Origin: Oscillospiraceae bacterium
GTDB taxonomy: Bacteria; Bacillota; Clostridia; Oscillospirales; JAAYXM01
Assembly: GCA_017421025.1 (NCBI GenBank)
Contig: JAFQME010000024.1
Location: 68,134 to 132,133, forward strand
Direction of reading: 5' to 3'
DNA: 64,000 bases
The notes under the pieces are model-generated. The model was not told the DNA's origin, searched no databases, and saw only the letters and a program-made list of their open reading frames with translations. Position 1 is the stretch's first letter, and every line of letters begins with the position of its first letter. Shown piece by piece: positions 3,725-36,986 of the stretch. Position numbers and translations under genes: made by a program.

Positions 3725-3736
3725 TTAATACGCATC

Positions 3737-3768
3737 GTCAGAAGGTGCTCAAAGGAGCACCTTCTGAC
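3737..3768 (+). promoter_or_regulatory. Intercistronic hairpin (perfect 14-bp stem, 4-nt loop) without U-tract
   Basis: GTCAGAAGGTGCTC-AAAG-GAGCACCTTCTGAC lies in the 69-nt gap between the first two full genes. No T-run follows. Confidence 0.55.
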
Positions 3769-3793
3769 TCACACTTTGATGGGGAGTGGCAGA

Positions 3794-5983: not shown

Positions 5984-5998
5984 AAGGAGGGAGCACAT

Positions 5999-8900
5999 AT
6001 GGGATTATTGATTTTTATCTTAAAACTGATATTGGTCCTTGTGATCACAGCGCTTCCTGCTGTTCCGTTTGTTCTGGAATACATTACTTTAAAACGAGAT
6101 CAAGAACAAAAAATCAGTTTTAAACGCCTGCGTGTTTTGCTTTACACGCTGGGGTATCTGATTGTTGCGACCATCCTTCTGTGTTTTATTGATGGGCTTA
6201 TTACCTGGTTACGTGACCTCCCCGTTTTGAAACAAGTTTTTGATTTGTTGGAAGCTTGTATTGAAGGGATTGCAAAAAAACTCTCACTGGTTACCCGCTA
6301 TGGTTACTACACCAAGGTGGTCGGTGTCATTGTGCTGAACTTCTTTATCGGCATGATTTACCGTTGGGTGAGCAAGGTCGTTCGAATTGGACTTAAGAAA
6401 AAGGATTTGACCAAGCCGAAAAAAGGAAAACACTTCACCCGTATACAGAGATTTGAACGGCGTGTGATCTGTTTTTTCCATAATGAGACATGGTTTTTTG
6501 TCGCTGAGATCCTAAAGTTTTTCAATTTGGCGCTTTCTGCGTTGTATTTGGGAGTGTTCTTGCTTTATCAGCTCCCGGGTGTGTTCGGTTTTAATTGGTT
6601 GCCGTTTGATTTTATCTATATGCTCTTTGAGTCCGGCTATCTGTTCCCGGCCGTGACTATGCTTGTGCTTTGGCAATCATATTTCTTCTTGGAAGGCATT
6701 CGCCGTGTCAGGGATGAATGCCCGGAACTTTTAGAAGAAGAGAAAGAAGAGCTTGCAACAAAAGAAGTGGATCTTGCTGCAATCGATGAAGCGGTTAAGA
6801 AGCAGTTTGCAGACTACTATGTTTGCGATTTGGATCTTTCGGATCAGGTGGCCGCAGAGATATTCTCGGCTGATCATCATCCGCTGACTCAATTTATCGG
6901 TCAGGCCGTTGAACGTGATGAGCGTAGTCCTCATCTTCCGAATGATACATACTTGACCGCAATGGATGGCCTTTTTTCGAGTGAGAAAAGTGCACTTATT
7001 AGCGGAAGCTTCTTTACTGAGTTTGCGAGATATTTCTTAAGATATCTCTCTATCATTCTCTCCCGTGGCGATAATGTGATTTTTGTTTGCAATACAGAAT
7101 CACAAATTGAATCTGTGTATGAATTCTTAAACGAGGCGCTTGCATCGATTACCAGCTTGTATTGCAAGGAATTTTCCAAAGATGCTGTGGATTTTGATGA
7201 TCCGATTTGGCGAATTGTGAAAGTCAGCGGAGAACATGATTCCATCAGTGAGGCAATGGTGGATGACAGCAATGTTCTTGTTACTTCGTTGGGATATCTT
7301 TGTTCGAATCGTTTTGAAACAGAACACAGTCGTTTTGTTCCGATGGTAGATTCTGTAGTGTTTGTAGATACGTTAACTACGATCAACTGCTATCATCGCC
7401 AAGTTGCAATTCTAAACAATCGTCTTAAGCATATCGCCCGTGAAAACTCCAATGTGGTGCGCAATGCAGAGAATAAAAGCAACTTCCAACGCTATTTGTC
7501 TCGCAAAATCCGTTATTTTTGCTTTGATGACAGCCGTACTCCGGGGTTGGATAAAGTACTCAAAAATATGCTTTCGGTGAATCTGGAGTCGTTGGACATC
7601 ATGTGTTACAGTCGCTCGACTTTGGTACGTTGTTACAACTACGAAGGAAGATTGGATGGCTCCGGCAGACAAGTCCTTCCGCAGTTCTTCCATTCTGAGG
7701 AAGAAGTCGGGGCACTGATCAATGTGGCAATTCTTTGTCTTGCAAAGGGTGCAAACAGCGTCAATATCTTTGCGGATGGTGCCATTCCGTTTGAAAACTA
7801 TGCGGAAACGATTGCGGCAAACCGTGGTCAGGTTTTGGTAAAGGCAGACGGGAATAATATCTGCATCAACCGTCATCGTTATGATGCAGATGGGTATTCG
7901 GTTGTCATTGCGATGGATTCAGGAGATAATCTGCCGGCAACGCTGCGTCGGTATATTTCCATGATGCCGGAAAAACCGACACTTGTGATAGTGTTCTCTC
8001 GTCCATACCTGTTACGTGATTTTTATCAAAGTAATTTAAAAGCGCTTTGGAGTGCAAGTCAGCTTGAGCGAATCCCTGTTGAAGAGGGAACCCGCAAAGA
8101 TCTTGCGCAACGTATTTTGGTCAAGGCAAATGCGGGAGGTATTACGACCGCAGAAGTTATGCAGCTTGCAAGCAACATCCCGCAACTGAATGGATTTGTT
8201 CAAGCCGGGGATTTGAATGCAATTTTGCGTATTGTATTGGAATGCTATGGTGTTCCGAAAGAAGAGAGAATCGATCTTTTCACCTATTTTGAATATGCTG
8301 CTTCTCATACGTTTGATGCAAATGGGAAATATGTATCCGAGGAGCGCATTTTCTTGCGTCGCAAGGGAAAACTCTTTGATTTAATCAATGGGCGTAATAT
8401 GGTGGTTCTCTCGATTGGAGATCAGGAACAGATGCTTCCTGTTCCGAAAAGCCGCTTGACACAAAATTTCATTGCAGGTCAAAACGTACTTTTCGACGGT
8501 AAGATTTACCACATTCTCAAAGTGGATACCGCATCGGGGAAACTTTACGGACGGCTTGCTGTAGGCGGTAAGAACGATGAGGTGTATGAATATCTCCAAA
8601 AGCGCGAATACCATGTAGAACTTTCCCATGGAGAAGGCGAGACAAACATTGAGAAAGTCTTCCAAACAAAGCATTTGGTACTCAACGAAAACGAAGGTTC
8701 TGTCGGACTTACCGATGCGTTTGTTTCGGTGTTCCGTGCGCCTGCCGAAGTTCTTACCTACGGCTATTTTGATGTCGACCCGCATACCATGACCCGAAGC
8801 TTCAAGGATGGACGCTATCACAGCATCTGTGATGCTAATAATGATTTGCTCTTTAAGCAGACCTACCGCCGTTACGGAACAATTTCCAACCCGAAGATTT

Positions 8901-11248
8901 CGTCTGAGGAGATTTTGTGCGACACCAATCTGATTTCTTCGACAGAAGGCCTGATGATGATGTCAGTCCGACTCGTTGGTAATTTTGGAGCAGGAAAAGA
9001 CAAAGCACTTCAGCTTTTGACTGTTATGCTCAATGAACTCCTGCGCTCCATGTTCCCTTCGGTAATTGACTCAATTGCTGTTTGTCCGGTTCTTAAGGAA
9101 GAATTCACCGATGAAGAGAGTGCCCAAGTGTTGGCGAAGTATCCGAAAGTAACCTTTGATGGTGTTGATGAAGCGGTCAGCAAAGATGAGTTTAATTTTA
9201 TCATTGTTGAGGACAGTGAAACGGATCTCGGTGTGGTTTCGGTTCTTTTACGAGCCGGCGATGATTTGCTGCGCACTTTGTTTGCTCCGATTAACGGTTA
9301 TTTAGAGTGGTATTTTTCCGCAGAACAAAAAAGTGAATATCTCTATTTTGGTATGGATCATGAGCCTGCATGTTTTGATTTCTCAATGTTGCGTGATGTT
9401 TCCCGTATTTTAGGCGATCGTAAACACGACATTCGTTTTGTTGAGTTATCGGAAATTGTGGAATATGAGGAATGCAGTTTCTGCGGAAAGCGGTATCGCA
9501 AGGGCGATTCAATCAATCGCCTGGGAGATGGTCGCTTGATGTGTAAAGAATGTGCTGAGCATTTGGTTGGTAACAACAAAAAGGTTCTCAAAGCACATTT
9601 GGAACGCGCAAAACTGTATTTGGAAAACACCTATGGAATTCGCTTGGATGAGGATTATGAATTCTGCTTTGAGTCCACTGTGAAACTGGCAAATACATTA
9701 AAGCAGAATCGTGAACTGCATCGTCAAGGTGCCGATGTTTCGCTGAAGAGTTACATTGACGAAAGCAAACGTGTGCATGTGGAATGTGATCTTCCGTCGG
9801 CAAATCTGTCTGAGCTTTTGGTGCGTGAACTCACTCATGTGTGGCAACTTTCGCATCTTAAGGGTGTGGAGAATCTTCTTTCGGGACACCTTGCATTGGT
9901 TGGCGTACAGTATCTGCGTTCCTTAAAAGAAAATGGACTTGCAGATTCACGTACTGCATACTTTGAAAGCACCGAAGCGGTTTCCGGTGTTGAATATCGT
10001 ACCTTGGTGCAGGAACTGCTGCTTCACCCTGAGTTTGGGAATAATCCGTTCCTCTATTTGCTGAAAACTGCCGGCATTTCGTCCGGAGACGAGGCAATGC
10101 CAATTCCACCGGAACTTGTTGAAAACGGATCTTACGGTGAACCGTATGTTCCGTCAGAGCCGGACCGTGCAACCGATGGAACCTTAAAGTATTTCTATCG
10201 AGAGCGGTTGACTGAGAGTCAGCGTGGAATGTATGATACAGTGCTTGAGGCACTTTGTAATCATGAGGAGAGTGTTGATCTCGCAGGAATCGAATTTGAG
10301 GATGCCAAAATCATCATTGAATCGATTGCGTATGACCATCCTGAGTTGTTCTGGATGAAGGAACATTATTCCTTAAGTGCAGACCGCTTGACCTTAAATT
10401 ATGGTTGCACTGCAGAAGAAGCACGTGTAATGGAAGCACGCATGGAACCTGTTATTTCCAAATTCCTCGATGGAATCACTCCTGAGATGAGTGCGTATGA
10501 TGTTGCTGTTATGCTCTATCGTCGTATCTTGAAGATGGTGGATTATGATACCATTGCGCTGAACAAAGAGCGGGAGCACGGCGGACCGGATCACAACAAG
10601 ATTGACATGCTTCGTGCAATTTGTGGTGTGTTTACCGACGGTAAGGCGGTTTGCGAGGGCTATGCACGTGCATTGCAGTATCTCCTGCAAAAGTGCGGAG
10701 TGGAATGCGCTGAGGCAGCGGGTATGGTGCATAAAGGAAACGGAGAAGAAGGCAGTCCGCATGCATGGAATATTGTCAAAATTGATGGAGATTATTATTA
10801 TCTCGATGTAACTTGGGACGATGATTCCAATACAGTTCAGTCTGTGAAGCAACCGAGAAATCAGGGGTATGCCTATTTCTGTATCACAACCGAGGAACTC
10901 AGTCGCTCTCGTGATACTTCGCTCTGTCCGGTTGCAATGCCGGTTTGTGATGCGGTTCGTGCAAACTATTTCGTTCATAACGGACTTGTGCTCGAGGCCT
11001 ATGATTTGAAAAAACTGAAAGAGATTGCAAAAGCTACTGCAGAAAGCGGCAATAACTTCATTACCTTTAAATGCACATCCAAAGCAGTTTACGATACAGC
11101 GATGGAAAATTTGTTCACCAAAGGTGATGATGTCTTTGCACTTGCAAAAGTTGCGGCAAAAGCAAACAAGAGTTTAAAGAGTGGACGTGTTTCCTATACG
11201 TGGGATGATCAAATGCTCGTTGTTTGCATCATTATGGAGATGAAGTGA
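5999..11248 (+). CDS. 1749-aa polytopic membrane protein: ~5 N-terminal TM helices + degenerate SF2-helicase/DUF1998-like body + Cys4 zinc ribbon + C-terminal transglutaminase-like cysteine-peptidase core
   Basis: AAGGAGG RBS. TM helices at nt ~6005-6688. CxxC-x19-CxxC at nt 9473-9553. RELTHVWQLSH at nt 9824-9856. Transglutaminase core CEGYARAL...HAWNIV...YYYLDVTWDD with Cys1552 (nt 10652), His1588 (10760) and Asp1603 (10805). Confidence 0.85.
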   Translation: MGLLIFILKLILVLVITALPAVPFVLEYITLKRDQEQKISFKRLRVLLYTLGYLIVATILLCFIDGLITWLRDLPVLKQVFDLLEACIEGIAKKLSLVTRYGYYTKVVGVIVLNFFIGMIYRWVSKVVRIGLKKKDLTKPKKGKHFTRIQRFERRVICFFHNETWFFVAEILKFFNLALSALYLGVFLLYQLPGVFGFNWLPFDFIYMLFESGYLFPAVTMLVLWQSYFFLEGIRRVRDECPELLEEEKEELATKEVDLAAIDEAVKKQFADYYVCDLDLSDQVAAEIFSADHHPLTQFIGQAVERDERSPHLPNDTYLTAMDGLFSSEKSALISGSFFTEFARYFLRYLSIILSRGDNVIFVCNTESQIESVYEFLNEALASITSLYCKEFSKDAVDFDDPIWRIVKVSGEHDSISEAMVDDSNVLVTSLGYLCSNRFETEHSRFVPMVDSVVFVDTLTTINCYHRQVAILNNRLKHIARENSNVVRNAENKSNFQRYLSRKIRYFCFDDSRTPGLDKVLKNMLSVNLESLDIMCYSRSTLVRCYNYEGRLDGSGRQVLPQFFHSEEEVGALINVAILCLAKGANSVNIFADGAIPFENYAETIAANRGQVLVKADGNNICINRHRYDADGYSVVIAMDSGDNLPATLRRYISMMPEKPTLVIVFSRPYLLRDFYQSNLKALWSASQLERIPVEEGTRKDLAQRILVKANAGGITTAEVMQLASNIPQLNGFVQAGDLNAILRIVLECYGVPKEERIDLFTYFEYAASHTFDANGKYVSEERIFLRRKGKLFDLINGRNMVVLSIGDQEQMLPVPKSRLTQNFIAGQNVLFDGKIYHILKVDTASGKLYGRLAVGGKNDEVYEYLQKREYHVELSHGEGETNIEKVFQTKHLVLNENEGSVGLTDAFVSVFRAPAEVLTYGYFDVDPHTMTRSFKDGRYHSICDANNDLLFKQTYRRYGTISNPKISSEEILCDTNLISSTEGLMMMSVRLVGNFGAGKDKALQLLTVMLNELLRSMFPSVIDSIAVCPVLKEEFTDEESAQVLAKYPKVTFDGVDEAVSKDEFNFIIVEDSETDLGVVSVLLRAGDDLLRTLFAPINGYLEWYFSAEQKSEYLYFGMDHEPACFDFSMLRDVSRILGDRKHDIRFVELSEIVEYEECSFCGKRYRKGDSINRLGDGRLMCKECAEHLVGNNKKVLKAHLERAKLYLENTYGIRLDEDYEFCFESTVKLANTLKQNRELHRQGADVSLKSYIDESKRVHVECDLPSANLSELLVRELTHVWQLSHLKGVENLLSGHLALVGVQYLRSLKENGLADSRTAYFESTEAVSGVEYRTLVQELLLHPEFGNNPFLYLLKTAGISSGDEAMPIPPELVENGSYGEPYVPSEPDRATDGTLKYFYRERLTESQRGMYDTVLEALCNHEESVDLAGIEFEDAKIIIESIAYDHPELFWMKEHYSLSADRLTLNYGCTAEEARVMEARMEPVISKFLDGITPEMSAYDVAVMLYRRILKMVDYDTIALNKEREHGGPDHNKIDMLRAICGVFTDGKAVCEGYARALQYLLQKCGVECAEAAGMVHKGNGEEGSPHAWNIVKIDGDYYYLDVTWDDDSNTVQSVKQPRNQGYAYFCITTEELSRSRDTSLCPVAMPVCDAVRANYFVHNGLVLEAYDLKKLKEIAKATAESGNNFITFKCTSKAVYDTAMENLFTKGDDVFALAKVAAKANKSLKSGRVSYTWDDQMLVVCIIMEMK

Positions 11249-11313
11249 TGCCGAAAACAAAACGTTCATCTTGTGAACACTACGTGAAAAAACCATAATC
11301 TGAAAAGATTCAA

Positions 11314-11364
11314 CAGTCCTCCGGCGCAGGGATCACCCCTGCATCGGGGGACTGGTTGTTTTTT
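11314..11364 (+). terminator. Rho-independent terminator closing the tubulin-like operon
   Basis: Nested GC-rich hairpin CAGTCCTCC..GCAGGG-ATCAC-CCCTGC..GGGGGACTG followed by TTGTTTTTT. Confidence 0.7.
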
Positions 11365-11489
11365 GCAAAAAGTGCTTAAAATCAACAGAATTCGACGAAT
11401 AAAGCGTTCATATTTCCTTATTCGTGCTCTCTTTTTGTCCGTTTTTTTGGACATGGGGGATGGTAGAATAGAGTTACAAAAGAGGACAC

Positions 11490-11518
11490 TTGCTGAACTA
11501 CCCTTTTTATGTTATAAT
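11490..11518 (+). promoter_or_regulatory. Sigma-70-type promoter (TTGCTG-17-TATAAT, TG-extended) upstream of the phage-like element
   Basis: TTGCTG 11490-11495, 17-nt spacer ending in TGT, TATAAT 11513-11518. It lies ~125 nt upstream of the ATG at 11643. Confidence 0.5.
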
Positions 11519-11642
11519 ACGAACATAAGTTTGATATTTATAATTTATCATAATTAAAAAATAAATACAAACAAGTTTCTGTAGAAGAAAAGAGTAGAGA
11601 AAAAGAAAAAGTAATAAAAAGAAAAAGAGAGGAGAAAAGAAG

Positions 11643-12389
11643 ATGAGTATTTGGGATGGAAGACTCAAAGATCCGAAAGATTATCTGGAGCTCAAGTGCA
11701 AGACGTATAATTCCGCACCCGGGAAGCTCACGGGATATGACTGCCCGATTTGCAAAAACCGTGGCGTGATTGCTCAGCCGGGAGAACGGGATGTGGTGTT
11801 TCGTTGGTGCAGCTGTCGGGAAAAGCGATTGATGCTGAAGAATCTTGAAAAGAGCGGAATCACACGGCTGAATACGTTTGAGGAATTTCTTTGCCCGGAG
11901 AAATGGCAATCAAAAGTCAAGGGGCGGGCAAAAGCGTTTGCCGAGCGGGATTGGGGTTGGTTTTACATGAGTGGTCAGCCCGGCTGCGGCAAGACCCTGC
12001 TTTGCACCGGGATTGTCAACCGTTTCCTGGAGCGAGGAAAGAGCGTGCGGTACTTCTTATGGCGTGAGGATGGAACACGACTCAAAGCCTTGGCGGGGGA
12101 TATCGCTTACCGTGAGGCGATTGAGCCGTATAAGACCTGCGAGGTGCTGTATATTGACGATTTGTTTAAGGGGGCGGTGACGCAGGGGGACTTAAACCTT
12201 GCCTTTGAACTCTTAAACCACCGTTACCTGGCGGGGAGTATCACCTTGATTTCAAGCGAAAAGAGTGTGTCGGAGTTGGTGGCACTCGATGAAGCGATTG
12301 GGAGTCGGGTGTATGAAAAAACACGGGAAAACCGATTCCATATCCCAAATTCAAAACACAAGAACTGGAGGTTGAACGAATGGAACTGA
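11643..12389 (+). CDS. DnaC/IstB-like AAA+ ATPase (PBSX XkdC-like replication protein)
   Basis: Walker A GQPGCGKT and Walker B VLYIDDL. N-terminal CPIC...CSC zinc motif. GAGGAG RBS. Confidence 0.75.
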   Translation: MSIWDGRLKDPKDYLELKCKTYNSAPGKLTGYDCPICKNRGVIAQPGERDVVFRWCSCREKRLMLKNLEKSGITRLNTFEEFLCPEKWQSKVKGRAKAFAERDWGWFYMSGQPGCGKTLLCTGIVNRFLERGKSVRYFLWREDGTRLKALAGDIAYREAIEPYKTCEVLYIDDLFKGAVTQGDLNLAFELLNHRYLAGSITLISSEKSVSELVALDEAIGSRVYEKTRENRFHIPNSKHKNWRLNEWN

Positions 12390-12673
12390 ACGCAAAGAAA
12401 TACGATCTCATGCGCTATCGGATGCTGAAAGCACGTGCAAGAGGTGCACTGGATGCAGGAAACACAACCCTTGCCCACGAACTCGCTTCGTGCGCCGAGG
12501 TGTTTCGCTTAGAACTCATTGACCGTATCTCCCACATCGAGGACGAGCGGGTACGCACCGTGCTCAGCCTGCGCTATTTGCATGGCTTGGACTGGGAAAC
12601 CATAGCCGAACAAATGTTCTTTAGTGTGCGTTGGGTGATGAAGCTCCACAGAAAGGGGATCGAGGTGCTATGA
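12380..12673 (+). CDS. Sigma-70 region-4-type HTH protein (Xpf/DUF1492-like late-gene regulator)
   Basis: 97 aa. C-terminal LSLRYLHGLDWETIAEQMFFSVRWVMKLHRKGIEVL resembles a sigma region 4 HTH. Its position between the XkdC-like gene and terS matches xpf in PBSX. Confidence 0.5.
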   Translation: MELNAKKYDLMRYRMLKARARGALDAGNTTLAHELASCAEVFRLELIDRISHIEDERVRTVLSLRYLHGLDWETIAEQMFFSVRWVMKLHRKGIEVL

Positions 12674-12981
12674 CCCCAAGGCAAAAGAAATTCTGTCATG
12701 AGTATCTGCTGTGTGAGGATGCGAGCGAGGCGGCGCACCGTGCCGGCTATCAGAATCCCGAACAGGCGGGAGAACGGTTGATGGGTGAGCGTGAGGTGCA
12801 GGAGTATCTGGAGGAGATTGCGGTGGCAGATCTCTTTGAGGTGCGTGCATTTCTCACACGGGCACTCCGAGGCGGCGGCAGCATGGCGGAGCGCATCAAG
12901 GCGGCGGATATGCTCTTAAAATGCGGCATTTCCCAAAAGACCGAGCCCGTGGTGATTTTCGGGGAGGGGGATTTGCAGTAG
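12670..12981 (+). CDS. terS: Terminase small subunit
   Basis: MTPRQKKFCHEYLLCEDASEAAHRAGYQNPEQAG is typical of a Terminase_2 N-terminus. ATGA start/stop overlap with the upstream gene (start 12670 preferred over 12631). Confidence 0.8.
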   Translation: MTPRQKKFCHEYLLCEDASEAAHRAGYQNPEQAGERLMGEREVQEYLEEIAVADLFEVRAFLTRALRGGGSMAERIKAADMLLKCGISQKTEPVVIFGEGDLQ

Positions 12982-13041
12982 CAAACCGGAGTATGATGCA
13001 ATCCGGTGGGAAACGCTCGATGCACAAAGGAGGAAAAACCC

Positions 13042-13382
13042 ATGAACGAGAAACAATACACGAAATACACGGTGGATTTTCGGAATGTCAAGCACTTTTT
13101 GGAGGTGCATTTCGTGATTCGGGAGGGGCTGGATTTTCCCGATTATTACGGATGGAACCGGGATGCGTTTTGGGACTGCATCACCGAGCCGTTTGGGGAG
13201 TCGGTCCTTTGGGGATTGAAGTGCTGGAACAATTCGATGATGATGCGTATATGCTGTTATCAACTCTCAAAGAATGGAAAAAATATGAGTTGCAATTGGG
13301 AAGAGAAAACCGAATCGAGGTCGTCCGAGGAGATCGGTGCATTGAAATCGATGATTATCCGATCGAGACGTTATGTCCGTAG
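13042..13382 (+). pseudogene. Barstar-family (barnase inhibitor) gene disrupted by a frameshift
   Basis: The N-terminal half (MNEKQYTKYTVDFRNVKHFLEVHFVIREGLDFPDYYGWNRDAFWDCITEPFGES) is in the frame of ORF 13006. The C-terminal half (PLGIEVLEQFDDDAYMLLSTLKEWKKY...IEIDDYPIE) is in the frame of ORF 12921. The switch is near 13195-13215. Both halves align to the intact copies at 35884 and 36501. Confidence 0.7.
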
Positions 13383-13455
13383 GATGAACGAACTGGAGAA
13401 TTCATAAGCGAACAAACGTTTTTCGAGGGCGGATCATGAGGCGTGCGTCAAGGGG

Positions 13456-14529
13456 ATGTTTGAGAAGATTGCAAAGACCATCCGTGAGGATCTCAAAAAC
13501 GGGGAATGGCACAACGATTTCCTCAAAGATGCCGAGGCAGATCGCTTGCGTGAAGCGGTGCAGCACCTTGAAAAATGCGGGGTTTCGTGCTATGATTTAA
13601 GAGATCTGATCGGAAAACTTGATTGGTATATCGATGCGAATGAAAACCGTGTTCGTAAGCTGCAGAAATCGCTCAATGCATTGCGGATTTCCCCATCGCT
13701 TTTGGAAGATGGAATTTTGGGTGCAAAAACCATTTCGGCGTGGGGGGATTTTTACAAAGAATTCCAAAATGCAAACTGCCCGAAACTACAGTGGAAAACG
13801 GCTCCGTTGCGTGCGGGAACCACTGATGTTTCGGAGCTTGAGAAACTCAGTCAATCAATGTCCGGGTATGGGGTGTTGGAGAAAGGGCTAAAGAATATGG
13901 AGTCTGTAGCGACAAAAATAAAAGCTGGAGAATGGCAAAAGAATTTTCGAGAATTGCACGAATTGTTTCCGAGTCTTCGCTCTGCGAGTTACCTGTCAGA
14001 TAATTTTTTTATTTCTCAAAGAGCAAAGCGCTTTTTAGATGATATGGGATCTTCTGTTCGTGTCGTTGAAAAAGCAGGGAACGTGTTTGCCGTTGCAGGA
14101 GTTGTGGCAGATGCGCTGATTGCAGGGGCTGAAGTTTATGATGATGTAAAATATGATGGAAAACTAGGACGAAAAGGATATGGTGCAGTTTTAGGAACGG
14201 CGACAAGTTATGCAATCGGATCGATGATTAGCAATTGGGGTGGTGGTCTGACGATCGGTGCAAAGTTAGGCGCAGTTTTTGGACCGGCGACAAGTTATGC
14301 AATCGGATCGATGATTAGCAATTGGGGTGGTGGTCTGACGATCGGTGCAAAGTTAGGCGCAGTTTTTGGACCGACAGGTGCTGTGATCGGTGCGGTTGTT
14401 GTTCCAATCATATTGACAATTGTTGGGGAAGAAACGGCCGGATCACTTGTGCGATGGGTTGTGGAGGTTACCGATCTCAAAAAGGAACTGTACGGACCTA
14501 CTATGGCAAAACATTTTAGTTTGGAGTGA
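13456..14529 (+). CDS. 357-aa protein with PG_binding_1-like motif and C-terminal glycine-zipper membrane region (candidate membrane-active toxin/lysis factor)
   Basis: RVRKLQKSLNALRISPSLLEDGILGAKTISAW (nt ~13648-13755) fits the peptidoglycan-binding-domain pattern. The C-terminus has a GxxxG/A-rich hydrophobic region with a duplicated 29-aa unit. There is no signal peptide. Confidence 0.6.
   Translation: MFEKIAKTIREDLKNGEWHNDFLKDAEADRLREAVQHLEKCGVSCYDLRDLIGKLDWYIDANENRVRKLQKSLNALRISPSLLEDGILGAKTISAWGDFYKEFQNANCPKLQWKTAPLRAGTTDVSELEKLSQSMSGYGVLEKGLKNMESVATKIKAGEWQKNFRELHELFPSLRSASYLSDNFFISQRAKRFLDDMGSSVRVVEKAGNVFAVAGVVADALIAGAEVYDDVKYDGKLGRKGYGAVLGTATSYAIGSMISNWGGGLTIGAKLGAVFGPATSYAIGSMISNWGGGLTIGAKLGAVFGPTGAVIGAVVVPIILTIVGEETAGSLVRWVVEVTDLKKELYGPTMAKHFSLE
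14200..14373 (+). repeat. Perfect 87-bp tandem duplication (2 copies) inside the glycine-zipper region
   Basis: 14200-14286 equals 14287-14373 by eye. Each copy encodes ATSYAIGSMISNWGGGLTIGAKLGAVFGP. Confidence 0.85.
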
Positions 14530-14535
14530 GGAATT

Positions 14536-15261
14536 GTGTATCCGAAGTGGCTTGCGAAGTTGATCGTTGCGACAAATGGGTTTGCCGAAGCGACCGGAAT
14601 GAAACACGCATATGTGGTGCGTGAGAAGAATGTATACCGTGTGTTCGGGATTGCGGACCTACACCGGGAGAAATTACTCTCGCTTGCGATGCGGATGCTT
14701 TGCGAGTTTTCTGCGCCGTTTGGTGTCATTACCTCGTTTTCGCGTGACCCTGAGCCGGTGTTGACCCCGGAAGAAAAACTGCGTTTCCGCCTTGAGCGGG
14801 AAGGTGCGGTTTTGGTGGAAGAAGATCGTTTTTCCGTGGCGAGTTTTGGGGCTCGCCGTGACATTTTAGAGGAAATAGGACACGATGTAACAGCATGGGG
14901 CAAGAACCGTCGGATTTGGGACGGGATGTACATGGAACTCTTCCCTCGGGAATGTTTCCCGAACGATCCGCTTTCCCGGTGGAAAGCAGGCAATTGGGAG
15001 CCGGAACTGACGCTTGCAACCGAGTTGTATCATATGCCGCCCGGGCTCCCCGGACAAAGCCGCAGAGAGCCGTTGTTTTGTGCGTTGTCGGTTTTTTGTG
15101 TGTCTGTCAAATTGCCGCACGGAAGCTCACCGCGCGTGGCACAAGGCTTAGAACACTGGCTTGCGACCGCACTTTCGGAATTGGATTTTTCTGCGGAGTG
15201 GTATGTGACCGGGAAATTGCCCGACTGCGAAGAGCGGATGTTTCAGCGGGAATTTCTGTAA
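14536..15261 (+). CDS. Paralog 1 of a three-member hypothetical family (candidate immunity-like protein)
   Basis: GTG start inside the conserved junction AGTTTGGAGTGAGGAATTGTGTAT (14518-14541). Shares the FGIADLH, WDGMYMELF and AEWYVTG blocks with the 15975 and 16753 genes. Confidence 0.7.
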   Translation: MYPKWLAKLIVATNGFAEATGMKHAYVVREKNVYRVFGIADLHREKLLSLAMRMLCEFSAPFGVITSFSRDPEPVLTPEEKLRFRLEREGAVLVEEDRFSVASFGARRDILEEIGHDVTAWGKNRRIWDGMYMELFPRECFPNDPLSRWKAGNWEPELTLATELYHMPPGLPGQSRREPLFCALSVFCVSVKLPHGSSPRVAQGLEHWLATALSELDFSAEWYVTGKLPDCEERMFQREFL

Positions 15262-15303
15262 CCGAACGGCGGAATGGGTTTTTGACAGTGAGGAGGAAAC
15301 AGG

Positions 15304-15957
15304 ATGAAAATCAAAGAGTTTTTTGAAAATTTGCTCATAAAATTTTTTGATCGGGTGTTTGATTGCCTTGGCATTCATGGGTGTGAGGAGTGGGAGGATA
15401 CCTACTTGATGAATGAGTGCATACGATATCCCTATTATGTGGATGGGGTTCCGCCCGAATATGCTCTGCTTACCTGTTATCCCGATCCGGTTTGGGGCGG
15501 CGATTGGGACTTCCCTTTGGTCGTGTGGGAGGTGCTGGAAACCCTCCTTGCAGGAAAGTGCGCGGTTGTGCGGCTTTCTTCCTGGGCGCCCAAGGGAGTA
15601 GAGTTTGTGAAAGACGAGCTTTCTCACATAGAATCCGTGTATCTCACAGGTGAGGAAATCTATGTGGTGTCAAACGGGATGAATCCTGCACTTGGGGACG
15701 TGATTGCTGCCAGAGCAGGTGAATTTGACCTGATTTGGGAAGTGTTTGGGGGATGCAGTTTCGTTGGAGGAAATTTTGAGGATGCGGAAGAGGCATATAC
15801 GATCGGTGCGAAAGTCTTTTTGGACTTGAGTTTTGGAGAGCATTGTGGTGCACAGTTTGTGTTTTCTGATCCTGCGGATCGGGAAACGGCAAGGAGCGTG
15901 TTGGCTGAAGTATGCCGCAAATACGGAAAGAAGCTGATCGAATCGAATGAGAGATGA
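15304..15957 (+). CDS. Hypothetical protein (217 aa), intercalated in the paralog array
   Basis: GAGGAGGA RBS. No motif recognised. Its stop abuts the second conserved junction. Confidence 0.65.
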   Translation: MKIKEFFENLLIKFFDRVFDCLGIHGCEEWEDTYLMNECIRYPYYVDGVPPEYALLTCYPDPVWGGDWDFPLVVWEVLETLLAGKCAVVRLSSWAPKGVEFVKDELSHIESVYLTGEEIYVVSNGMNPALGDVIAARAGEFDLIWEVFGGCSFVGGNFEDAEEAYTIGAKVFLDLSFGEHCGAQFVFSDPADRETARSVLAEVCRKYGKKLIESNER

Positions 15958-15974
15958 GTTTGGAGTGAGGAATT

Positions 15975-16727
15975 GTGTATACAGAGAGGGATGCAAAAAT
16001 TTCCCTTGCGCTTTGTATGAAGAGAAAAATGTTACGTCGGATTTATGTTTGGAGGACGGAACGGAAACTCTCAGAGCATACACGGGTGACCTATCAGATT
16101 TATGGTGTGGCAGAACTTCATGCCGAGAAACTCCACGCACTTGCCATGAAGTTTTTGCGGGAGTTTGCGGCACCGTTTGATACGGTGATGACCGTCCTGA
16201 AACAAACACGATTTGATTCAATGCCGAATGAGCAACTGCAGGCACGATTGAAACTTGAGAGCGCTGTCTTTGCGGAGAAAAATAAGTTTTCTGTTTTTTC
16301 CCACGGCGTGCGCAATGACATTCTTGATACCATCGGTCGCAATGTGAAAACATGGGGCGACTACGAACCTGTTTGGGACGGGATGCACTTGGAATTGTTT
16401 TCAAACGAGGTTCTGCCGGGCGATCCGACCGAGGCATTGGAGCGTTGGAACAAGAATCGTCCCAAACCTGTGTTTGAAATCATGACTGAGTTTCGCAGGT
16501 TTCCGAGAGACGGTTATCCTTATCAGTATTACACATCAAGCATTACAAAGTTTTGCATCAATGCGGGGTTCTGCGAGGGAAGTACGGATGCGGATGAGCA
16601 GGCATTTGAGAAGTGGCTTGCGAGTGTGTTTACCGAACTGGACATCAATGCGGAATGGTATGTGACCGGGAGCAAACCCGAAAGTGCCAGTGCGTTCTTC
16701 CCTTGGGATGATGCCGAAGCGTGGTGA
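15975..16727 (+). CDS. Paralog 2 of the three-member hypothetical family
   Basis: GTG start in junction 15957-15980. Has the conserved blocks YGVAELHAEKLHALAMKFLREFAAPFD, VWDGMHLELF and AEWYVTG. Confidence 0.7.
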   Translation: MYTERDAKISLALCMKRKMLRRIYVWRTERKLSEHTRVTYQIYGVAELHAEKLHALAMKFLREFAAPFDTVMTVLKQTRFDSMPNEQLQARLKLESAVFAEKNKFSVFSHGVRNDILDTIGRNVKTWGDYEPVWDGMHLELFSNEVLPGDPTEALERWNKNRPKPVFEIMTEFRRFPRDGYPYQYYTSSITKFCINAGFCEGSTDADEQAFEKWLASVFTELDINAEWYVTGSKPESASAFFPWDDAEAW

Positions 16728-16752
16728 AAGATGGAGTTTGGAGTGAGGAATT

Positions 16753-17490
16753 GTGTATCCGAAGTGGCTTACGAAGTTGGATCTTTTGTGGTATGGGCAG
16801 AACTATTTGATGCAACCGATTTTTGTTTGGAGAAGTAAAAAACGGCTTTCGCCGCATACAAAGGCGACTTATCGGGTTTTCGGAGTGGCAGAACTTCATG
16901 TGGAGGAGTTTCATGCGCTTTCCATGAAGTTTTTGCGGGAGTTTGCGACATCGTTTGATGTGGTGATGACAGTTCGTCACAAGTCGCTTCTTGATACTGT
17001 AAAGATGAATCCGTTTTTGAAACGACCGAAACCCGAATGTGCCATGATCGTGGATGAAAAAAACATTGCGGTATTGACTCGTTCTGCGCACCAAGAGGTT
17101 TTGAATCGGCTTGGACGAGATGTAAAAGCATGGAAGAAGAATCAATGGGTGTGGGACGGAATGAAGGTGGAATTTTTTTCGCCTGGAGACTTGCCGGATG
17201 ACCCGAATGAGGCGCTTGCATGGTGGAATGAGCATCGACCGCAACCTGCATTTGAACTGAAAATCGAGTTTCGGGAGTTTTCGTCGCATGGCAAACACTA
17301 TATCCGAAATGCTACCACTTTTTGTATCTCTGCCGCACTTCCGCAAGGAAGTACGGATGCGGATGAGCAGGCATTTGAGAAGTGGCTTGCGAGTGTGTTT
17401 GCCGAACTGGACTTGGATGCGGAATGGTATGTGACCGGAACAGAGCCTGATTGTACGGAGCTGTTCTTTGGTTGGGGGAAAATTGGCTGA
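16753..17490 (+). CDS. Paralog 3 of the three-member hypothetical family
   Basis: GTG start in junction 16735-16758. A 54-nt block (17347-17400) is identical to 16578-16631 of paralog 2. Confidence 0.7.
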   Translation: MYPKWLTKLDLLWYGQNYLMQPIFVWRSKKRLSPHTKATYRVFGVAELHVEEFHALSMKFLREFATSFDVVMTVRHKSLLDTVKMNPFLKRPKPECAMIVDEKNIAVLTRSAHQEVLNRLGRDVKAWKKNQWVWDGMKVEFFSPGDLPDDPNEALAWWNEHRPQPAFELKIEFREFSSHGKHYIRNATTFCISAALPQGSTDADEQAFEKWLASVFAELDLDAEWYVTGTEPDCTELFFGWGKIG

Positions 17491-17528
17491 TTGAGATGAG
17501 GTTGGAGTGAGGGAAGTGTGCAAGTGCG

Positions 17529-17557
17529 TTGACTTTTTTCGGCATTTTTGGTATACT
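17529..17557 (+). promoter_or_regulatory. Sigma-70-type promoter (TTGACT-17-TATACT) for the lipoprotein/YitT cassette
   Basis: TTGACT 17529-17534, 17-nt spacer, TATACT 17552-17557. Confidence 0.55.
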
Positions 17558-17592
17558 GGATGACGCAAAAAAAGAGAAGGAAGTGCTTTGGA

Positions 17593-17898
17593 ATGAAACG
17601 GTTACTGGCTTGTGTGTTGCTCCTGGTGTTTCTTGTTTCCGGCTGTGCTTCGGTGGAGTCGAAGCTGGTTGGAAAATGGGAGCGTGAGGGAGACAAGTTG
17701 ATTTTAAATGAGGACTATACCGGAGATCTTTCCGGGACTTCGATTACTTGGATGTACACCAACGAGGAATTGCAGATGATTTACGACGACGGCATGAACG
17801 TTGCGTTTGATGTGGAATTTGAGGGTCGGGATCGGCTGATTCTCACATCGGCGGGAGAGTATGGCATGACAGCGGAATTTTCCCGTGTGGAGGACTAA
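17593..17898 (+). CDS. Small lipoprotein (lipocalin-like/DUF-type)
   Basis: MKRLLACVLLLVFLVSGC is a lipobox signal. Start 17593 is preferred over 17548. Confidence 0.7.
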   Translation: MKRLLACVLLLVFLVSGCASVESKLVGKWEREGDKLILNEDYTGDLSGTSITWMYTNEELQMIYDDGMNVAFDVEFEGRDRLILTSAGEYGMTAEFSRVED

Positions 17899-18735
17899 AT
17901 GAAACAGACGAAAACCATTTTGATGACCTTGTTTGGCACCATGATGACAGGGTTTGCCATCGGTGCGTTTCTCACTCCGAATAAAGTGGTTGGTGGCGGT
18001 GCTTCCGGTATTTCCACCATTTTGTTCCACACCTTTGGCATTTCTCCGGGTATCAGTTTCTTTGTGATCAACCTGGTCTTTTTGCTTTTGGGGCTGCGTG
18101 TTTTGGGCAAGGAATTCATTGTCAAAACCCTGATCGGAATCACGCTGCTGTCGGCCTTTACCGAGGTGTTCAACTTAATCCCGATCTACACCGAGAATTT
18201 ATTTCTTGCGGTGATTTTCGGGGGCGGGCTTTACGGGCTTGGCATCGGCATGAGTTTTGCAGCCGGCGCATCCACCGGCGGCACCGACATCATTGGCCGC
18301 ATCATTCAGACCAAGTTCTCGCATGTCCCGATCGGGAAGATGCTGCTGTTTGTGGATGGGGTGATTATTTTGGTGTCCCTCATCGTGTTCCGTAATCTGG
18401 AACTCACGTTGTATGGCATCATCACTCTGCTGATCTCGAGCTTCTCGATTGATTTCATCATCGGGAAATTCAACGTGTCCCGCCTGGTGTTTGTCATCAC
18501 CGATTACGGGACCGAGATTGCGCATCGTTTGGTGTCCACCTCGCCTCGTGGGGTCACGTTGATTCCGGTTCACGGGGTGTATTCGGACAGCGAAAAACAG
18601 ATGCTGTTTTGTGCACTCAAGGAGAGTGAAGTTGCCGCATTCCAAAAGAAGATTTTGGAGCTGGACCCGGGCGCATTCATCGTGTTTGCCGAAAGCCAGC
18701 GCATCAAAGGCAACGGGTTTTATCTGTATCAATAG
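17899..18735 (+). CDS. YitT-family membrane protein (DUF161 + DUF2179)
   Basis: N-terminus FGTMMTGFAIGAFLTPNKVVGGGASGISTIL and multi-TM topology are typical of the YitT family. The C-terminal soluble domain ends ...RIKGNGFY. Confidence 0.8.
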   Translation: MKQTKTILMTLFGTMMTGFAIGAFLTPNKVVGGGASGISTILFHTFGISPGISFFVINLVFLLLGLRVLGKEFIVKTLIGITLLSAFTEVFNLIPIYTENLFLAVIFGGGLYGLGIGMSFAAGASTGGTDIIGRIIQTKFSHVPIGKMLLFVDGVIILVSLIVFRNLELTLYGIITLLISSFSIDFIIGKFNVSRLVFVITDYGTEIAHRLVSTSPRGVTLIPVHGVYSDSEKQMLFCALKESEVAAFQKKILELDPGAFIVFAESQRIKGNGFYLYQ

Positions 18736-18736
18736 C

Positions 18737-18761
18737 AAACCGCCCGTACAGGGCGGTTTTT
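18737..18761 (+). terminator. Rho-independent terminator after the yitT-like gene
   Basis: AAACCGCCC-GTACA-GGGCGGTTT followed by a T-run. Confidence 0.75.
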
Positions 18762-18802
18762 CCAAAACAGACATACGAACAAATGTTTTAAGGAGAGAGG
18801 AA

Positions 18803-19999
18803 ATGAAGTGTTATTTACCGGACATTGTCGGTGGCGGGTACCGTGAGTTTTGGAATTTTCGTGGGAGGTATCGGGTGGTCAAAGGGAGCCGTGCGTCCAA
18901 AAAATCCAAGACCGCTGCGTTGTGGTATATCGTACATCTGATGAAATACAGCGATGCGAATCTGCTTGTGGTACGAAAGACCGAACGAAGTCTTCGGGAT
19001 TCTTGTTTTGCGGATTTGATCTGGGCGATGGAGCGACTCGGGGTACGGGATCAATTCCATTGCACCACCGCACCGCTTTCCATTGTCTACAAGCCAACCG
19101 GGCAGCAGGTGCTGTTTCGTGGGGTGATGGAGAGTCTCAGACTCACCTCGATTGCGGTGAGTCGGGGGAGTTTGTGTTGGCTGTGGGTAGAGGAGGCATA
19201 TGAAATCGGAGACGAAGCCGAGTTTCAGACGCTGGATGAGTCTATCCGTGGCGATGGCGTGTTCAAACAAATCACGCTGACCTTCAACCCATGGAGCGAG
19301 ACCCATTGGCTGAAATCCCGCTTTTTCGATACATCGGACCCCGAAGTGCTTGCCATGACCGTGAATTACACCCAAAACGAGTGGCTGGATGAGAGTGACC
19401 GTGCCATGTTCGAACGGATGCGGGAACGGGATCCTCGCCGTTACCGTGTGGCGGGGCTTGGTGAGTGGGGGATTTGCGACGGGCTGGTGTATACCGATTG
19501 GGAGGAGTGCGACTTTGACGTGGATGCACTTCGCAGCAGCACCCGTGCGATTTTTGGGCTGGATTTTGGATACACCACCGACCCTGCCGCTTTGGTTTGT
19601 GCCCTGGCTGATGAGGGAGCTCGCACACTGTATATTTTCGATGAGCTTTATGCCAAGGGGCTGACCAACCGTGTGTTGGCGGAGCGAATCACATCACTTG
19701 GCTATGCAAAGGAACGTATCGTTGCGGATTCCGCTGAGCCGAAAAGCATTGCAGAGTTGAGAGAGTGGGGGATTACTCGGGTCACCCCGGCACGCAAAGG
19801 TGCGGATTCGGTGCGGAATGGGGTGCGTTATCTGCAGGATTGGCACATCTGCATCCACCCCCGTTGTACCGCATTTTTGGGCGAGATCTCACGCTTTGCA
19901 GAGACCCCGGACGGGACAAGCGGCGACGATCATCTCATGGACGCCCTGCGATATGCGGCAGAGGATCTCCGCCGAGGGGAGCTGTTTAGTTTTGAATGA
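18803..19999 (+). CDS. terL: Terminase large subunit (PBSX XtmB-like)
   Basis: AAGGAGAGAGG RBS before ATG 18803. Has the ATPase-like WVEEAYE (Walker B) and the C-terminal nuclease region GLDFGY...DHLMDALRY. The 18611 extension overlaps yitT and the terminator, so it is rejected. Confidence 0.85.
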   Translation: MKCYLPDIVGGGYREFWNFRGRYRVVKGSRASKKSKTAALWYIVHLMKYSDANLLVVRKTERSLRDSCFADLIWAMERLGVRDQFHCTTAPLSIVYKPTGQQVLFRGVMESLRLTSIAVSRGSLCWLWVEEAYEIGDEAEFQTLDESIRGDGVFKQITLTFNPWSETHWLKSRFFDTSDPEVLAMTVNYTQNEWLDESDRAMFERMRERDPRRYRVAGLGEWGICDGLVYTDWEECDFDVDALRSSTRAIFGLDFGYTTDPAALVCALADEGARTLYIFDELYAKGLTNRVLAERITSLGYAKERIVADSAEPKSIAELREWGITRVTPARKGADSVRNGVRYLQDWHICIHPRCTAFLGEISRFAETPDGTSGDDHLMDALRYAAEDLRRGELFSFE

Positions 20000-20039: not shown

Positions 20040-20079
20040 GTAGCAGATACATACACAAAAGATGGAAAGGGGAATTCTT

Positions 20080-20370
20080 ATGAAAAAAATCATCTTGATT
20101 GCTGTTGCAGCAGTGTTGTTAATTGCATTGCTGGTACCGTATGTGCCGTACTATTTCCATGGTTGCGACAGCTGCGACAAGTTCTTTGTCGGACCGGGCT
20201 ATGAAGCAAATGTGGTTGTAGACTTGTTCTCTAAGGGCGAACAGTTGGTTTGTCGTGAGTGTGCAGAGTCGCAGCATGTGGTTGGGACTACTTTCGGCAA
20301 GGATATTGCTGAATACCGCCGTTCCGCAATCGTTGATCCGATCACCGCATATGGTTTGCTCTTCAAGTAA
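20080..20370 (+). CDS. Small membrane-anchored zinc-ribbon protein (hypothetical)
   Basis: N-terminal TM MKKIILIAVAAVLLIALLV, then CDSC...CREC. Start 20080 is preferred over 20062. Confidence 0.6.
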   Translation: MKKIILIAVAAVLLIALLVPYVPYYFHGCDSCDKFFVGPGYEANVVVDLFSKGEQLVCRECAESQHVVGTTFGKDIAEYRRSAIVDPITAYGLLFK

Positions 20371-20390
20371 GTTTTTAGGAGGGTTTTAAA

Positions 20391-20840
20391 ATGAAAAGAA
20401 CAGTTGCATTTCTTTGCGCAGTTGTAATGCTGGTGACGATGTTTGCCGGCTGCACCACAAAAAAAGGTGAGATTGAAACGTTGTTTACAAACTATCAGGC
20501 AGCGTGCAATGCATTGGATTTGAATGCTATGATGGCTTGTGTTACCCCGACTGTCACCAATCCGCTCAAGACAGCGGCAGGTATTGTCGGTAAGTTGACT
20601 GCCAATGATACAGATGCAATGTTTGACAAAATTGGCGCTTTGATTATGAACGAAACAAAAGTCAGCCGCAAAGAATATTTCCAAACCCTTAGTTTCAAGG
20701 TTGGAACAATTACCATCGAAGAGGATGTAGCTACCGTTGAGGTGATTCGTACTTACACCGGAAATGGCGCAGAGTATACCGAGGAAGATACTTACGAATG
20801 CGTGTTTTATGCAGATCAATGGTATTTGAAACACTTTTAA
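20391..20840 (+). CDS. Lipoprotein (149 aa), function unknown
   Basis: Lipobox signal MKRTVAFLCAVVMLVTMFAGC. AGGAGGG RBS. Confidence 0.7.
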   Translation: MKRTVAFLCAVVMLVTMFAGCTTKKGEIETLFTNYQAACNALDLNAMMACVTPTVTNPLKTAAGIVGKLTANDTDAMFDKIGALIMNETKVSRKEYFQTLSFKVGTITIEEDVATVEVIRTYTGNGAEYTEEDTYECVFYADQWYLKHF

Positions 20841-20853
20841 ACACAAAGCAAAA

Positions 20854-20887
20854 CACCGGAATCCATCAGAGATTCCGGTGTTTTTTT
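20854..20887. terminator. Bidirectional terminator between convergent cargo genes
   Basis: CACCGGAATC-7 nt-GATTCCGGTG, flanked by an A-rich stretch and T7. Confidence 0.75.
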
Positions 20888-22857: not shown

Positions 22858-22894
22858 GAAACCCTTTGATTTACAAGGGGTTTCTTGTTTTTTT
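22858..22894 (+). terminator. Plus-strand intrinsic terminator-like hairpin just upstream of the portal gene
   Basis: GAAACCCTTTG-ATTTA-CAAGGGGTTTC (one G-U pair) followed by TTGTTTTTTT. Confidence 0.45.
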
Positions 22895-23052
22895 GTTTGA
22901 GGGAAGAGGACATTTACTGTCCTCTATGGGGTGTGGTATCATGGATATGCAAACGAAAGTTCGGGATATGGAGAAAGAGAAGCTGTGGGGATCCACGCAG
23001 TTTTTTTTACTTTGGTATTCGAACGGATGTTTGCGAGAAAGGAGGTGAAAGC

Positions 23053-36955: not shown

Positions 36956-36986
36956 AGACCATCATAAAAAAGGTGGCGTGATCGAA

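Follow-up and report, generated by a model that had tools for sequence, protein, structure and literature searches.

A myovirus-like prophage of an Oscillospiraceae bacterium, held in a 64,000-nucleotide stretch of contig JAFQME010000024.1 (assembly GCA_017421025.1, positions 68,134 to 132,133 of the forward strand; hereafter the window), carries an open reading frame (ORF) at 13456-14529 on the + strand that starts with ATG and has a product of 357 amino acids (aa). This gene is probably an orphan, N-terminally truncated module of an undescribed Oscillospiraceae polymorphic-toxin family, carried as prophage cargo together with an array of candidate immunity genes. The original prediction, made from the sequence of the window, had proposed a toxin followed by immunity candidates. 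That proposal gains strong indirect support from the family, in which a constant N-terminal region is combined with at least three unrelated kinds of C-terminal cassette, each with its own family of downstream genes.

An exhaustive HMMER search of 1.84 billion representative proteins recovered 124 relatives, of which 61 reach E <= 1e-10. A length of ~560 aa recurs in many of them, with the match to the window protein starting near residue 245. The full-length members have a conserved helical N-terminal domain of ~240 aa, a core with a peptidoglycan (PG)-binding module and an exchangeable C-terminal cassette, and the additional N-terminal domain starts with MS(K/R)E..G..G...GS..Y(F/W). In AlphaFold models built with family alignments, residues 1-345 of the homologue P0004 are helical, with predicted local distance difference test (pLDDT) values mostly >90. 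A dip at residues ~221-230 corresponds to a linker, and the window protein begins just past the position of this linker. Homology to a second full-length member, P0003, opens at 13432, eight codons 5' of the ATG and level with residue 228 of P0003. The comparison with P0003 shows nothing left of the N-terminal domain anywhere in the window, and because this domain is missing from the whole window, the gene is classed as an orphan module. The relative P0002 is likewise truncated, 20 residues further upstream and with an intact frame, so that orphan modules of the kind known from polymorphic toxin-immunity systems occur in the family as both the window protein and P0002.

Other searches delimited the family. 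A word-index search with the full protein found only a single-copy allele (P0001, see below), one with the N-terminal 235 aa added P0002 (~48-49% identity, same phage context), and one with a profile of the family N-terminal domain returned one protein only. A hand-made degenerate DNA pattern on WFVGGD...EDGVYG, applied to species-representative genomes, identified 36 loci, nearly all in Oscillibacter, Dysosmobacter, Lawsonibacter and other Oscillospiraceae/Clostridia, and the complete genome of Oscillibacter valericigenes Sjm18-20 has two family loci. A scan of IMG/VR with the window protein yielded no relatives. NCBI names the family members in its holdings "hypothetical protein", and Pfam, NCBIfam, PHROGs and PADLOC gave no family assignment besides the PG-binding module. 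NCBIfam, PHROGs and PADLOC were equally uninformative for the partner genes and the neighbouring genes.

The anatomy of the window gene is directly visible in the sequence, the family alignment and the models:

13456..14529, + strand: the ORF under study, an N-terminally truncated (orphan) family member with a type-A, Gly/Ala-rich C-terminal cassette.
13456..13785, + strand: conserved helical core, residues 1-110, common to all family members and equivalent to P0004 residues ~237-345 (pLDDT 87-97).
13642..13770, + strand: PG_binding_1/3-like helical module, residues ~63-105 (NRVRKLQKSLNAL...EDGILGAKTISAWGDFYKEFQ), below the Pfam cut-off in this protein and supported by relatives, profile and superposition.
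14056..14151, + strand: predicted beta-hairpin and amphipathic helix, residues 201-232 (VRVVEKAGNVFAVAGVVADALIAGAEVYDD; pLDDT 84-91).
14374..14529, + strand: most hydrophobic segment (GAVIGAVVVPIILTIVG), WVVEVT anchor and clade-specific tail, from hydrophobicity and the family alignment.

The N-terminal region of the family is joined to at least three unrelated C-termini. Type A consists of a variable linker, a confidently modelled beta-hairpin and amphipathic helix, a D.D.KLG motif, a Gly/Ala-rich hydrophobic stretch and a W/Y-V-V-D/E-I/V-T motif. Type B is a soluble domain of ~230 aa ending ...AND.G..SQ.D.VIS, and the type-C domain, rich in Gly and beta structure, ends ...FNP..W; other hydrophobic C-termini occur in a few members. 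The exchange of these cassettes is most clearly seen when the type-A protein of locus L041 is compared with the type-B proteins of L014, L036 and L031. Identity is 65-74% from residue 1 to ~339 and falls to background directly past the PG-binding module. A breakpoint this sharp is the hallmark of polymorphic toxins.

The window protein belongs to type A. Its residues 201-232 correspond to the conserved start of the cassette, with the D.D.KLG anchor at their end, and the conserved WVVEVT anchor lies at nt 14455-14472. Its Kyte-Doolittle hydrophobicity peaks at ~residues 296-333, with a weaker peak at 203-229. As had been stated in the original prediction, the product has no signal peptide: the target has no N-terminal hydrophobic segment, and the Kyte-Doolittle maximum for 19-mers over the first 30 positions of the sliding frame is -0.3. 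The Gly/Ala-zipper C-terminus proposed at the same time stands as a description, since the C-terminus is Gly/Ala-rich and hydrophobic, but not as a family assignment. Pfam models Gly-zipper_Omp, Gly-zipper_YMGG, Rick_17kDa_Anti and Bacteriocin_IIc do not match it at E <= 10, and the C-termini of relatives reach only E 0.56-7.3, far below the cut-offs, against the Pfam glycine-zipper and Bacteriocin_IIc models. We use "glycine zipper" here as a label of composition and motif only.

The gene that follows each family member tracks the type of its cassette, a covariation that we observe directly, and the gaps are mostly -15 to +22 nt. The genes after type-A members, mostly at a distance of -15 to +7 nt, encode soluble products of 190-250 aa that fall into several BLAST clusters. 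Type-B members precede a family of 155-aa proteins with an N-terminal membrane anchor, present at L031 as three tandem paralogues (155-156 aa). For type C, the downstream product at L034 is 158 aa long and has hydrophobic segments, and L045, a chromosomal locus among housekeeping genes, has a tandem array of 156/158/159-aa proteins (11615-13074). Arrays of candidate immunity genes, another feature of polymorphic toxin-immunity systems, thus occur in the window (p1, p3 and p4), at L031 (three copies) and at L045 (three copies). In the window the candidate partners are arranged as follows:

14518..14541, + strand: 24-nt junction AGTTTGGAGTGAGGAATTGTGTAT with the toxin's last codons, stop, Shine-Dalgarno sequence and a GTG start.
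14536..15261, + strand: p1, 241 aa, soluble, 6 nt past the toxin stop; p-family, candidate cognate immunity/neutralising protein.
15304..15957, + strand: p2, 217 aa, soluble, of a different family; linked to the array by a fusion in L002 and to a type-A partner cluster by hhalign.
15975..16727, + strand: p3, 250 aa, p-family paralogue (39% identity to p1, 47% to p4).
16753..17490, + strand: p4, 245 aa, p-family paralogue.

The gene had been described as heading an array of small paralogous genes. This holds for p1, p3 and p4, which share 35-47% identity with one another, but not for p2, which is unrelated to them, and at 217-250 aa the products are not especially small. Members of the p-family also lie downstream of the closest toxin relatives of the window gene, at L002, L004, L005 and L025, and L002 encodes a single 420-aa protein that joins a p-family domain to a p2 domain. 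Local hhalign comparisons connect p2 to the main type-A partner cluster, c1 (93%, E 3e-7), and this cluster to two others (97.5% and 66%). The 24-nt junction is identical at 14518-14541, 15957-15980 and 16735-16758, ahead of p1, p3 and p4, which indicates that the cassettes were duplicated together with the 3' end of the toxin gene. In addition, a 92-nt stretch near the 3' ends of p3 and p4 (16578-16669 and 17347-17438) is 95.7% identical, compared with 47% identity between the proteins. This stretch and the 24-nt junctions together suggest gene conversion or cassette duplication within the array. PDB profile searches with the p-family and the type-B cassette were empty or at noise level.

The PG-binding motif noted in the original prediction holds at the level of the family, although the window protein itself falls below the Pfam cut-off: PG_binding_3 (PF09374) matches it with E 0.0027 and 18.3 bits, against a gathering threshold of 24.6. 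Among the relatives, 21 of 49 match PG_binding_1 (PF01471) at E <= 0.01, the best with 9e-7. With the family profile, the PG-binding region of LysT84 (7rum) scores E 3.6e-5, and weaker matches are to SleC, phiKZ gp144 and an L,D-transpeptidase. Local superposition of the AlphaFold model gives an rmsd of 1.5-1.9 A on the PG modules of TtsA (6v40) and SleC (9h68), over 47-49 columns with 28-33% identity, and of 3.8 A on that of LysT84 over 44 columns. The family and these endolysin or cortex-lytic proteins (LysT84, SleC, TtsA) have the same helical module with an LQ..LN...DG.(Y/L)G..T signature. Unlike in those proteins, the module is set in a larger helical core and is accompanied by no catalytic hydrolase domain. 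Together with the membrane-anchored type-B partners, the PG-binding module argues that the family acts outside the cytoplasm.

We hypothesize that the N-terminal helical domain of ~240 aa would direct export of full-length members, and that the PG-binding module in the helical core would tether the protein to the cell wall. The type-A hairpin, amphipathic helix and Gly/Ala-rich hydrophobic hairpin ending in WVVD/EIT would then damage or depolarise the cytoplasmic membrane, which, by analogy with TelE (discussed below), is the most likely activity of this cassette. The soluble p1, with its paralogues, and p2 would neutralise the toxin by direct binding. It is possible that the copies carried by prophages are released by phage-type lysis.

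Several family loci provide context for these proposals. A full-length member, P0003, occupies the same slot between the terminase genes (terS-terL) of a related phage (L004), in which a 1096-aa TIR-domain protein is encoded after terL (L004 region 9488-11353). In another related phage, L005, the family gene (encoding P0004) directly follows holin and amidase genes, and at L006 the family gene lies in an island between two integrases, with an AAA_21/RloB pair directly upstream (2897-4863). Among 112 neighbouring ORFs from 27 genome loci we identified six integrases and an IS66 transposase, along with a conjugative coupling protein and genes of housekeeping function.

A number of observations weigh against a secreted, membrane-acting polymorphic toxin. 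The N-terminal domains of the family have no Pfam, PDB sequence or Foldseek match, and none of 20 matched LXG even at E <= 5. No type VII secretion system (T7SS) or Lap/WXG100-type genes appear among the 25 most frequent families listed for the 112 neighbouring ORFs at 27 loci, or at loci L004-L006 and L043-L045, and neither a secretion signal nor a secretion-system gene was found for the family and its neighbouring ORFs. No member, cassette or partner matches a known toxin or immunity entry in Pfam, NCBIfam, PHROG, PADLOC or PDB, so the argument for toxicity is one from architecture. Soluble partners are unusual for membrane-acting toxins, though TelE and TipE (discussed below) set a precedent. 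AlphaFold pLDDT is <50 across the Gly-rich region and ~30 in a unit that is duplicated there. The ribosome-binding site of the window gene is poorly spaced, and given this spacing and the loss of the presumed export domain, the window copy may be inactive or silent. Conversely, the intact frame of P0002 may mean that short forms are functional and perhaps persist under selection.

A more far-reaching alternative is that these proteins form a new class of polymorphic toxins in gut Oscillospiraceae, in which the N-terminal domain specifies an export route independent of T7SS and Sec, and in which the window allele is a cassette that changes its membrane-inserting hairpin. One possibility for such a route is lysis by holin and endolysin, or a pathway of holin and peptidoglycan hydrolase, with the PG module tethering the protein. 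We regard this combined proposal as unlikely.

A different alternative is that the protein is never exported and serves in a toxin-antitoxin, abortive-infection or superinfection-exclusion system, as a membrane-depolarising effector that the soluble antitoxins p1-p4 would restrain until phage attack or the lytic cycle sets it free. The absence of a signal peptide, the soluble, cytoplasmic nature of the partners and the lack of any secretion system found nearby are all consistent with this, as is the position of the loci on prophages and integrase islands near defence-type genes (AAA_21/RloB in L006, TIR in L004). However, the module is PG-binding-like, and peptidoglycan is found outside the cytoplasm. 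The membrane-anchored type-B partners and the hydrophobic segments of the type-C partner resemble the immunity proteins of exported toxins, divergent partner arrays and orphan modules are hallmarks of interbacterial toxins and not of toxin-antitoxin pairs, and there are no PADLOC matches. An intracellular role, including release of the effector during infection or the lytic cycle, seems improbable to us.

The window copy has a second unusual property, a tandem duplication in its Gly-rich region:

14185..14199, + strand: 15-nt imperfect repeat GCAGTTTTAGGAACG, 13/15 matches to the last 15 nt of the unit (GCAGTTTTTGGACCG).
14200..14286, + strand: copy 1 of the duplication unit, residues 249-277, the first Gly-rich segment of the type-A cassette.
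14287..14373, + strand: copy 2, residues 278-306, absent in contig L001 and in 51/51 measured relatives.

The perfect 87-bp duplication that had been reported is confirmed: 14200-14286 equals 14287-14373 base for base, in frame and with the ORF kept intact, so that the 29-aa unit ATSYAIGSMISNWGGGLTIGAKLGAVFGP occurs at residues 249-277 and again at 278-306. The maximal exact repeat is 89 nt (14198-14286 = 14285-14373), a length that is effectively impossible to obtain by chance, and Tandem Repeats Finder reports 14185-14373 with a period of 87, 2.2 copies and a score of 364. The 15-nt microhomology was probably the substrate of the slipped-strand mispairing behind the duplication.

Three public contigs of precisely this strain bear on whether the duplication is real. 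L046 (ENA ERZ28653841, BioSample SAMN15829894, 18,665 bp) has both copies and matches the window at 100% identity along 13,379 bp, but it may not be independent of the window, as it may stem from one and the same study and possibly from a shared pipeline or shared reads. L001 (ERZ27256764, MEGAHIT k141, 18,578 bp) has the same contig ends and lacks one unit but otherwise shows 0 mismatches to the window in 13,292 nt, an allelic difference that can be read directly from the alignment. L047 (ERZ28653878, BioSample SAMN15829930) is 100% identical to the window on both sides of a gap of 100 N at L047 2684-2783, which corresponds to window 14253-14318 and leaves contig edges at 14252 and 14319. Because this gap lies inside the duplicated region, the toxin gene is not called in the L047 record. 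The edges coincide with the breaks predicted for an 89-nt repeat in a de Bruijn graph with K=55 (14198+55-1 = 14252 and 14373-55+1 = 14319). The fixed gap of 100 bp is presumably the convention of the SPAdes manual for an unresolved tandem repeat. A repeat loop in such a graph requires reads across the junction of copy 1 and copy 2, and the duplication is therefore taken as real.

The original prediction had left open whether the duplication was very recent or an artefact, and of these two options the first is the better supported. An assembly or scaffolding artefact over a truly single-copy sequence could account for the single copy in the MEGAHIT k141 contig, which has the same ends and is otherwise identical, and for the single copy in all relatives, particularly if L046 and the window share a pipeline or even their reads. 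Against this, the 13-of-15 microhomology is too short to create a loop without junction reads, L047, which comes from a different BioSample, breaks at exactly the K=55 boundaries, and MEGAHIT would be able to collapse short two-copy tandem repeats at low k. An artefact is thus quite unlikely. We consider it very likely that at least two samples truly contain the duplication. With 0 differences between its copies it is probably very recent, having arisen by replication slippage between the 15-nt microhomologies. L001 could represent either a co-existing ancestral allele or a MEGAHIT collapse.

The spacing of the cassette anchors suggests what the duplication may do. From D.D.KLG to WVVDIT, 51 type-A relatives have 57-68 aa (median 65); the corresponding distance is 66 aa for the single-copy allele but 95 aa for the window allele. 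The duplication inserts 29 residues into an otherwise length-constrained hairpin of a copy that already lacks the presumed export domain. An outlier in a length-constrained segment is more likely to be disruptive than adaptive, and the C-terminal WVVEVT anchor would be flipped across the membrane by a third segment, provided that the usual form is a helical hairpin. It had been proposed that the duplication adds one more zipper helix. This is doubtful, as the unit is weakly hydrophobic (Kyte-Doolittle <1.2 until its last residues) and the resulting spacing lies outside the range of the relatives.

An adaptive role, in which an extra Gly-zipper segment would alter oligomer or pore size, topology or recognition by immunity proteins and so create a new specificity, finds some encouragement in the preserved reading frame, in the rise of GxxxG motifs from 5 in the single-copy form to 8 in the duplicated form, in the general tendency of polymorphic toxins to diversify fast, and in the several divergent partner genes at the locus. 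Yet no relative shows such a change in length, the N-terminal domain has already been lost, and the 0 substitutions between the copies give no sign of persistence. We consider adaptation a poor prospect; judged from the sequences, the duplication is probably neutral or disruptive and not a gain of function.

The prophage accommodates the toxin gene in a 5.6-kb cargo island between terS and terL (12981-18611). The island genes, a Barstar-like gene, the toxin gene, p1-p4, a lipoprotein gene and a gene for a YitT-family protein, are all on the + strand and tightly packed. The island and the surrounding prophage genes are:

11643-12389: DnaC/IstB-like ATPase of the prophage.
12380-12673: sigma-region-4-like regulator of the prophage.
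12631..12981, + strand: terminase small subunit of the prophage, left island border.
13006..13407, + strand: Barstar-like ORF, an orphan gene of immunity type (Barstar model, E 2e-10, 41 bits); public contigs have it as a 121-aa product starting at 13042.
17548-17898, + strand: lipoprotein of the cargo island.
17899-18735, + strand: YitT/DUF2179 membrane protein of the cargo island.
18611..19999, + strand: terminase large subunit, right island border; the true start is probably internal.
22885-24381: SPP1-type portal of the prophage.
34517-35485: Amidase_2 endolysin of the prophage.

Further prophage genes encode a capsid protein, a sheath, a CHAP/YqbQ-like protein and baseplate J, and host genes begin at ~36.9 kb. 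A scan of 11200-19000 for promoters and terminators gave 13 promoter-like (7.4 +/- 2.5 in shuffles) and 12 terminator-like elements (8.6 +/- 3.2 in shuffles), none convincingly placed.

The Barstar-like ORF matches the Barstar model only with residues 21-61 (model positions 4-44 of 96). It is in the frame of the toxin ORF, and the two are separated by one stop codon and 16 codons without a start codon. No barnase-type gene is present near it, and a barnase-less Barstar-like gene at the place of the missing N-terminal domain suggests past turnover of cassettes.

That the gene encodes a phage lysis or virion component, such as a holin-like, tape-measure-like or tail-lysin-like membrane segment or an ejection protein, is extremely improbable: weak PHROG matches to Gly-rich regions of tape-measure and tail-lysin proteins (E ~1e-3), a weak profile match to a PDB tape-measure chain (E 0.017), the location in the late operon between terS and terL and the position of the P0004 gene directly after holin and amidase genes speak for it, but most family loci are outside phages, related phages have it in different positions, in keeping with cargo, an amidase of its own is already encoded by the prophage, and exchangeable C-termini with matched downstream genes are unlike a structural protein.

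Specific identities were also considered and rejected. The holin-like option of the original prediction is at odds with the size of the protein (357 aa, with a soluble N-terminal part of 200 aa and the PG module, compared with ~70-150 aa for holins) and with the location of the amidase gene 20 kb away. A tape-measure protein was dismissed on the non-phage loci and the exchangeable C-termini. A known anti-phage defence system was set aside, as PADLOC matched neither the target and p1-p4 nor the Barstar-like gene or the giant proteins encoded upstream.

Other features of the region were recorded alongside the island. The giant proteins are encoded by three very large + strand genes at 203-11248, upstream of the phage replication and packaging genes. 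The first (1173 aa) has an N-terminal Tubulin_2 domain (PF13809, E 1e-45), the second (735 aa) has no matches, and the third (1749 aa) combines hydrophobic segments at its N-terminus with a transglutaminase-like core at its C-terminus. The trio is kept in the diverged relative L002 (1183, 729 and 1746 aa), and it has no PADLOC or PHROG assignment. L004 has the same pair of lipoprotein and YitT genes in its terS-terL interval, with 68% identity between the two lipoproteins. A further cargo region lies between terL and the portal gene (20062-22736), with GC content down to 0.43. Two small proteins encoded there (20062-20370 and 20391-20840) have hydrophobic segments at the N-terminus, and the - strand at 20886-22736 encodes a 616-aa membrane protein with a weak match to a Slo-like RCK domain. 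Just past the end of the prophage amidase gene, a + strand host gene (36918-38321) encodes SLH and CAP (cysteine-rich secretory protein) domains, which places the right boundary of the prophage at ~35.5-36.9 kb.

Oscillospiraceae are abundant, hard-to-culture gut anaerobes whose means of interbacterial competition are almost unknown. The locus described here points to a family of at least 100 proteins organised in the manner of polymorphic toxins and their immunity proteins. If confirmed, this family would provide a trafficking domain of a new kind as well as several new folds of toxins and immunity proteins, and prophages would be seen to move toxin-immunity cassettes between strains. The duplication is a small, clean example of an indel between otherwise identical genomes in the membrane segment of a putative toxin, and it illustrates that the behaviour of assemblers can be read as a test of whether a repeat is real.

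LXG and other polymorphic toxin families, reportedly treated by Zhang et al. 2012 and by Jamet and Nassif 2015, are defined by their N-terminal domains. Like those of the LXG type, the family described here has a constant N-terminal region, a sharp breakpoint, variable cassettes, cognate downstream genes, orphans and immunity arrays. It differs from them in that its N-terminal domain, its three cassettes and its partner families are all unannotated.

The MuF toxins (Jamet et al. 2017, PMC5576092) are also polymorphic toxins of Bacillota prophages, encoded near terminase and portal genes and with an immunity gene downstream. Family Pfam scans found no MuF (Phage_Mu_F) domain, and unlike MuF toxins the window gene lies between terS and terL, separated from the portal gene (22885-24381) by other genes, and most family loci are outside phages. 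CdzC/D, Tse4 and TspA resemble the type-A cassette in the repeated small-xxx-small motifs of their hydrophobic C-termini and in an action presumed to form pores or depolarise the membrane. The immunity proteins of these toxins span the membrane several times (summarised in PMC10434224), whereas the type-A partners are soluble and the type-A C-termini do not satisfy the Pfam Gly-zipper and Bacteriocin_IIc models.

The closest parallel is TelE of Streptococcus gallolyticus, a membrane-acting LXG toxin of the T7SSb with a C-terminal glycine zipper, of which N-terminally truncated orphan copies exist and which is neutralised through direct binding by TipE, a soluble protein without a transmembrane segment (PMC10434224). 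The family differs from TelE in having no LXG domain and no T7SS genes nearby; we liken the two by description only. TelE has no PG-binding module, and the family partners have no DUF5085 match. Shared by both are a helical N-terminal part without a signal peptide and a Gly-rich hydrophobic motif at the C-terminus, and, as in the TelE/TipE system, the family combines a soluble partner with several divergent partner paralogues and N-terminally truncated orphan copies.

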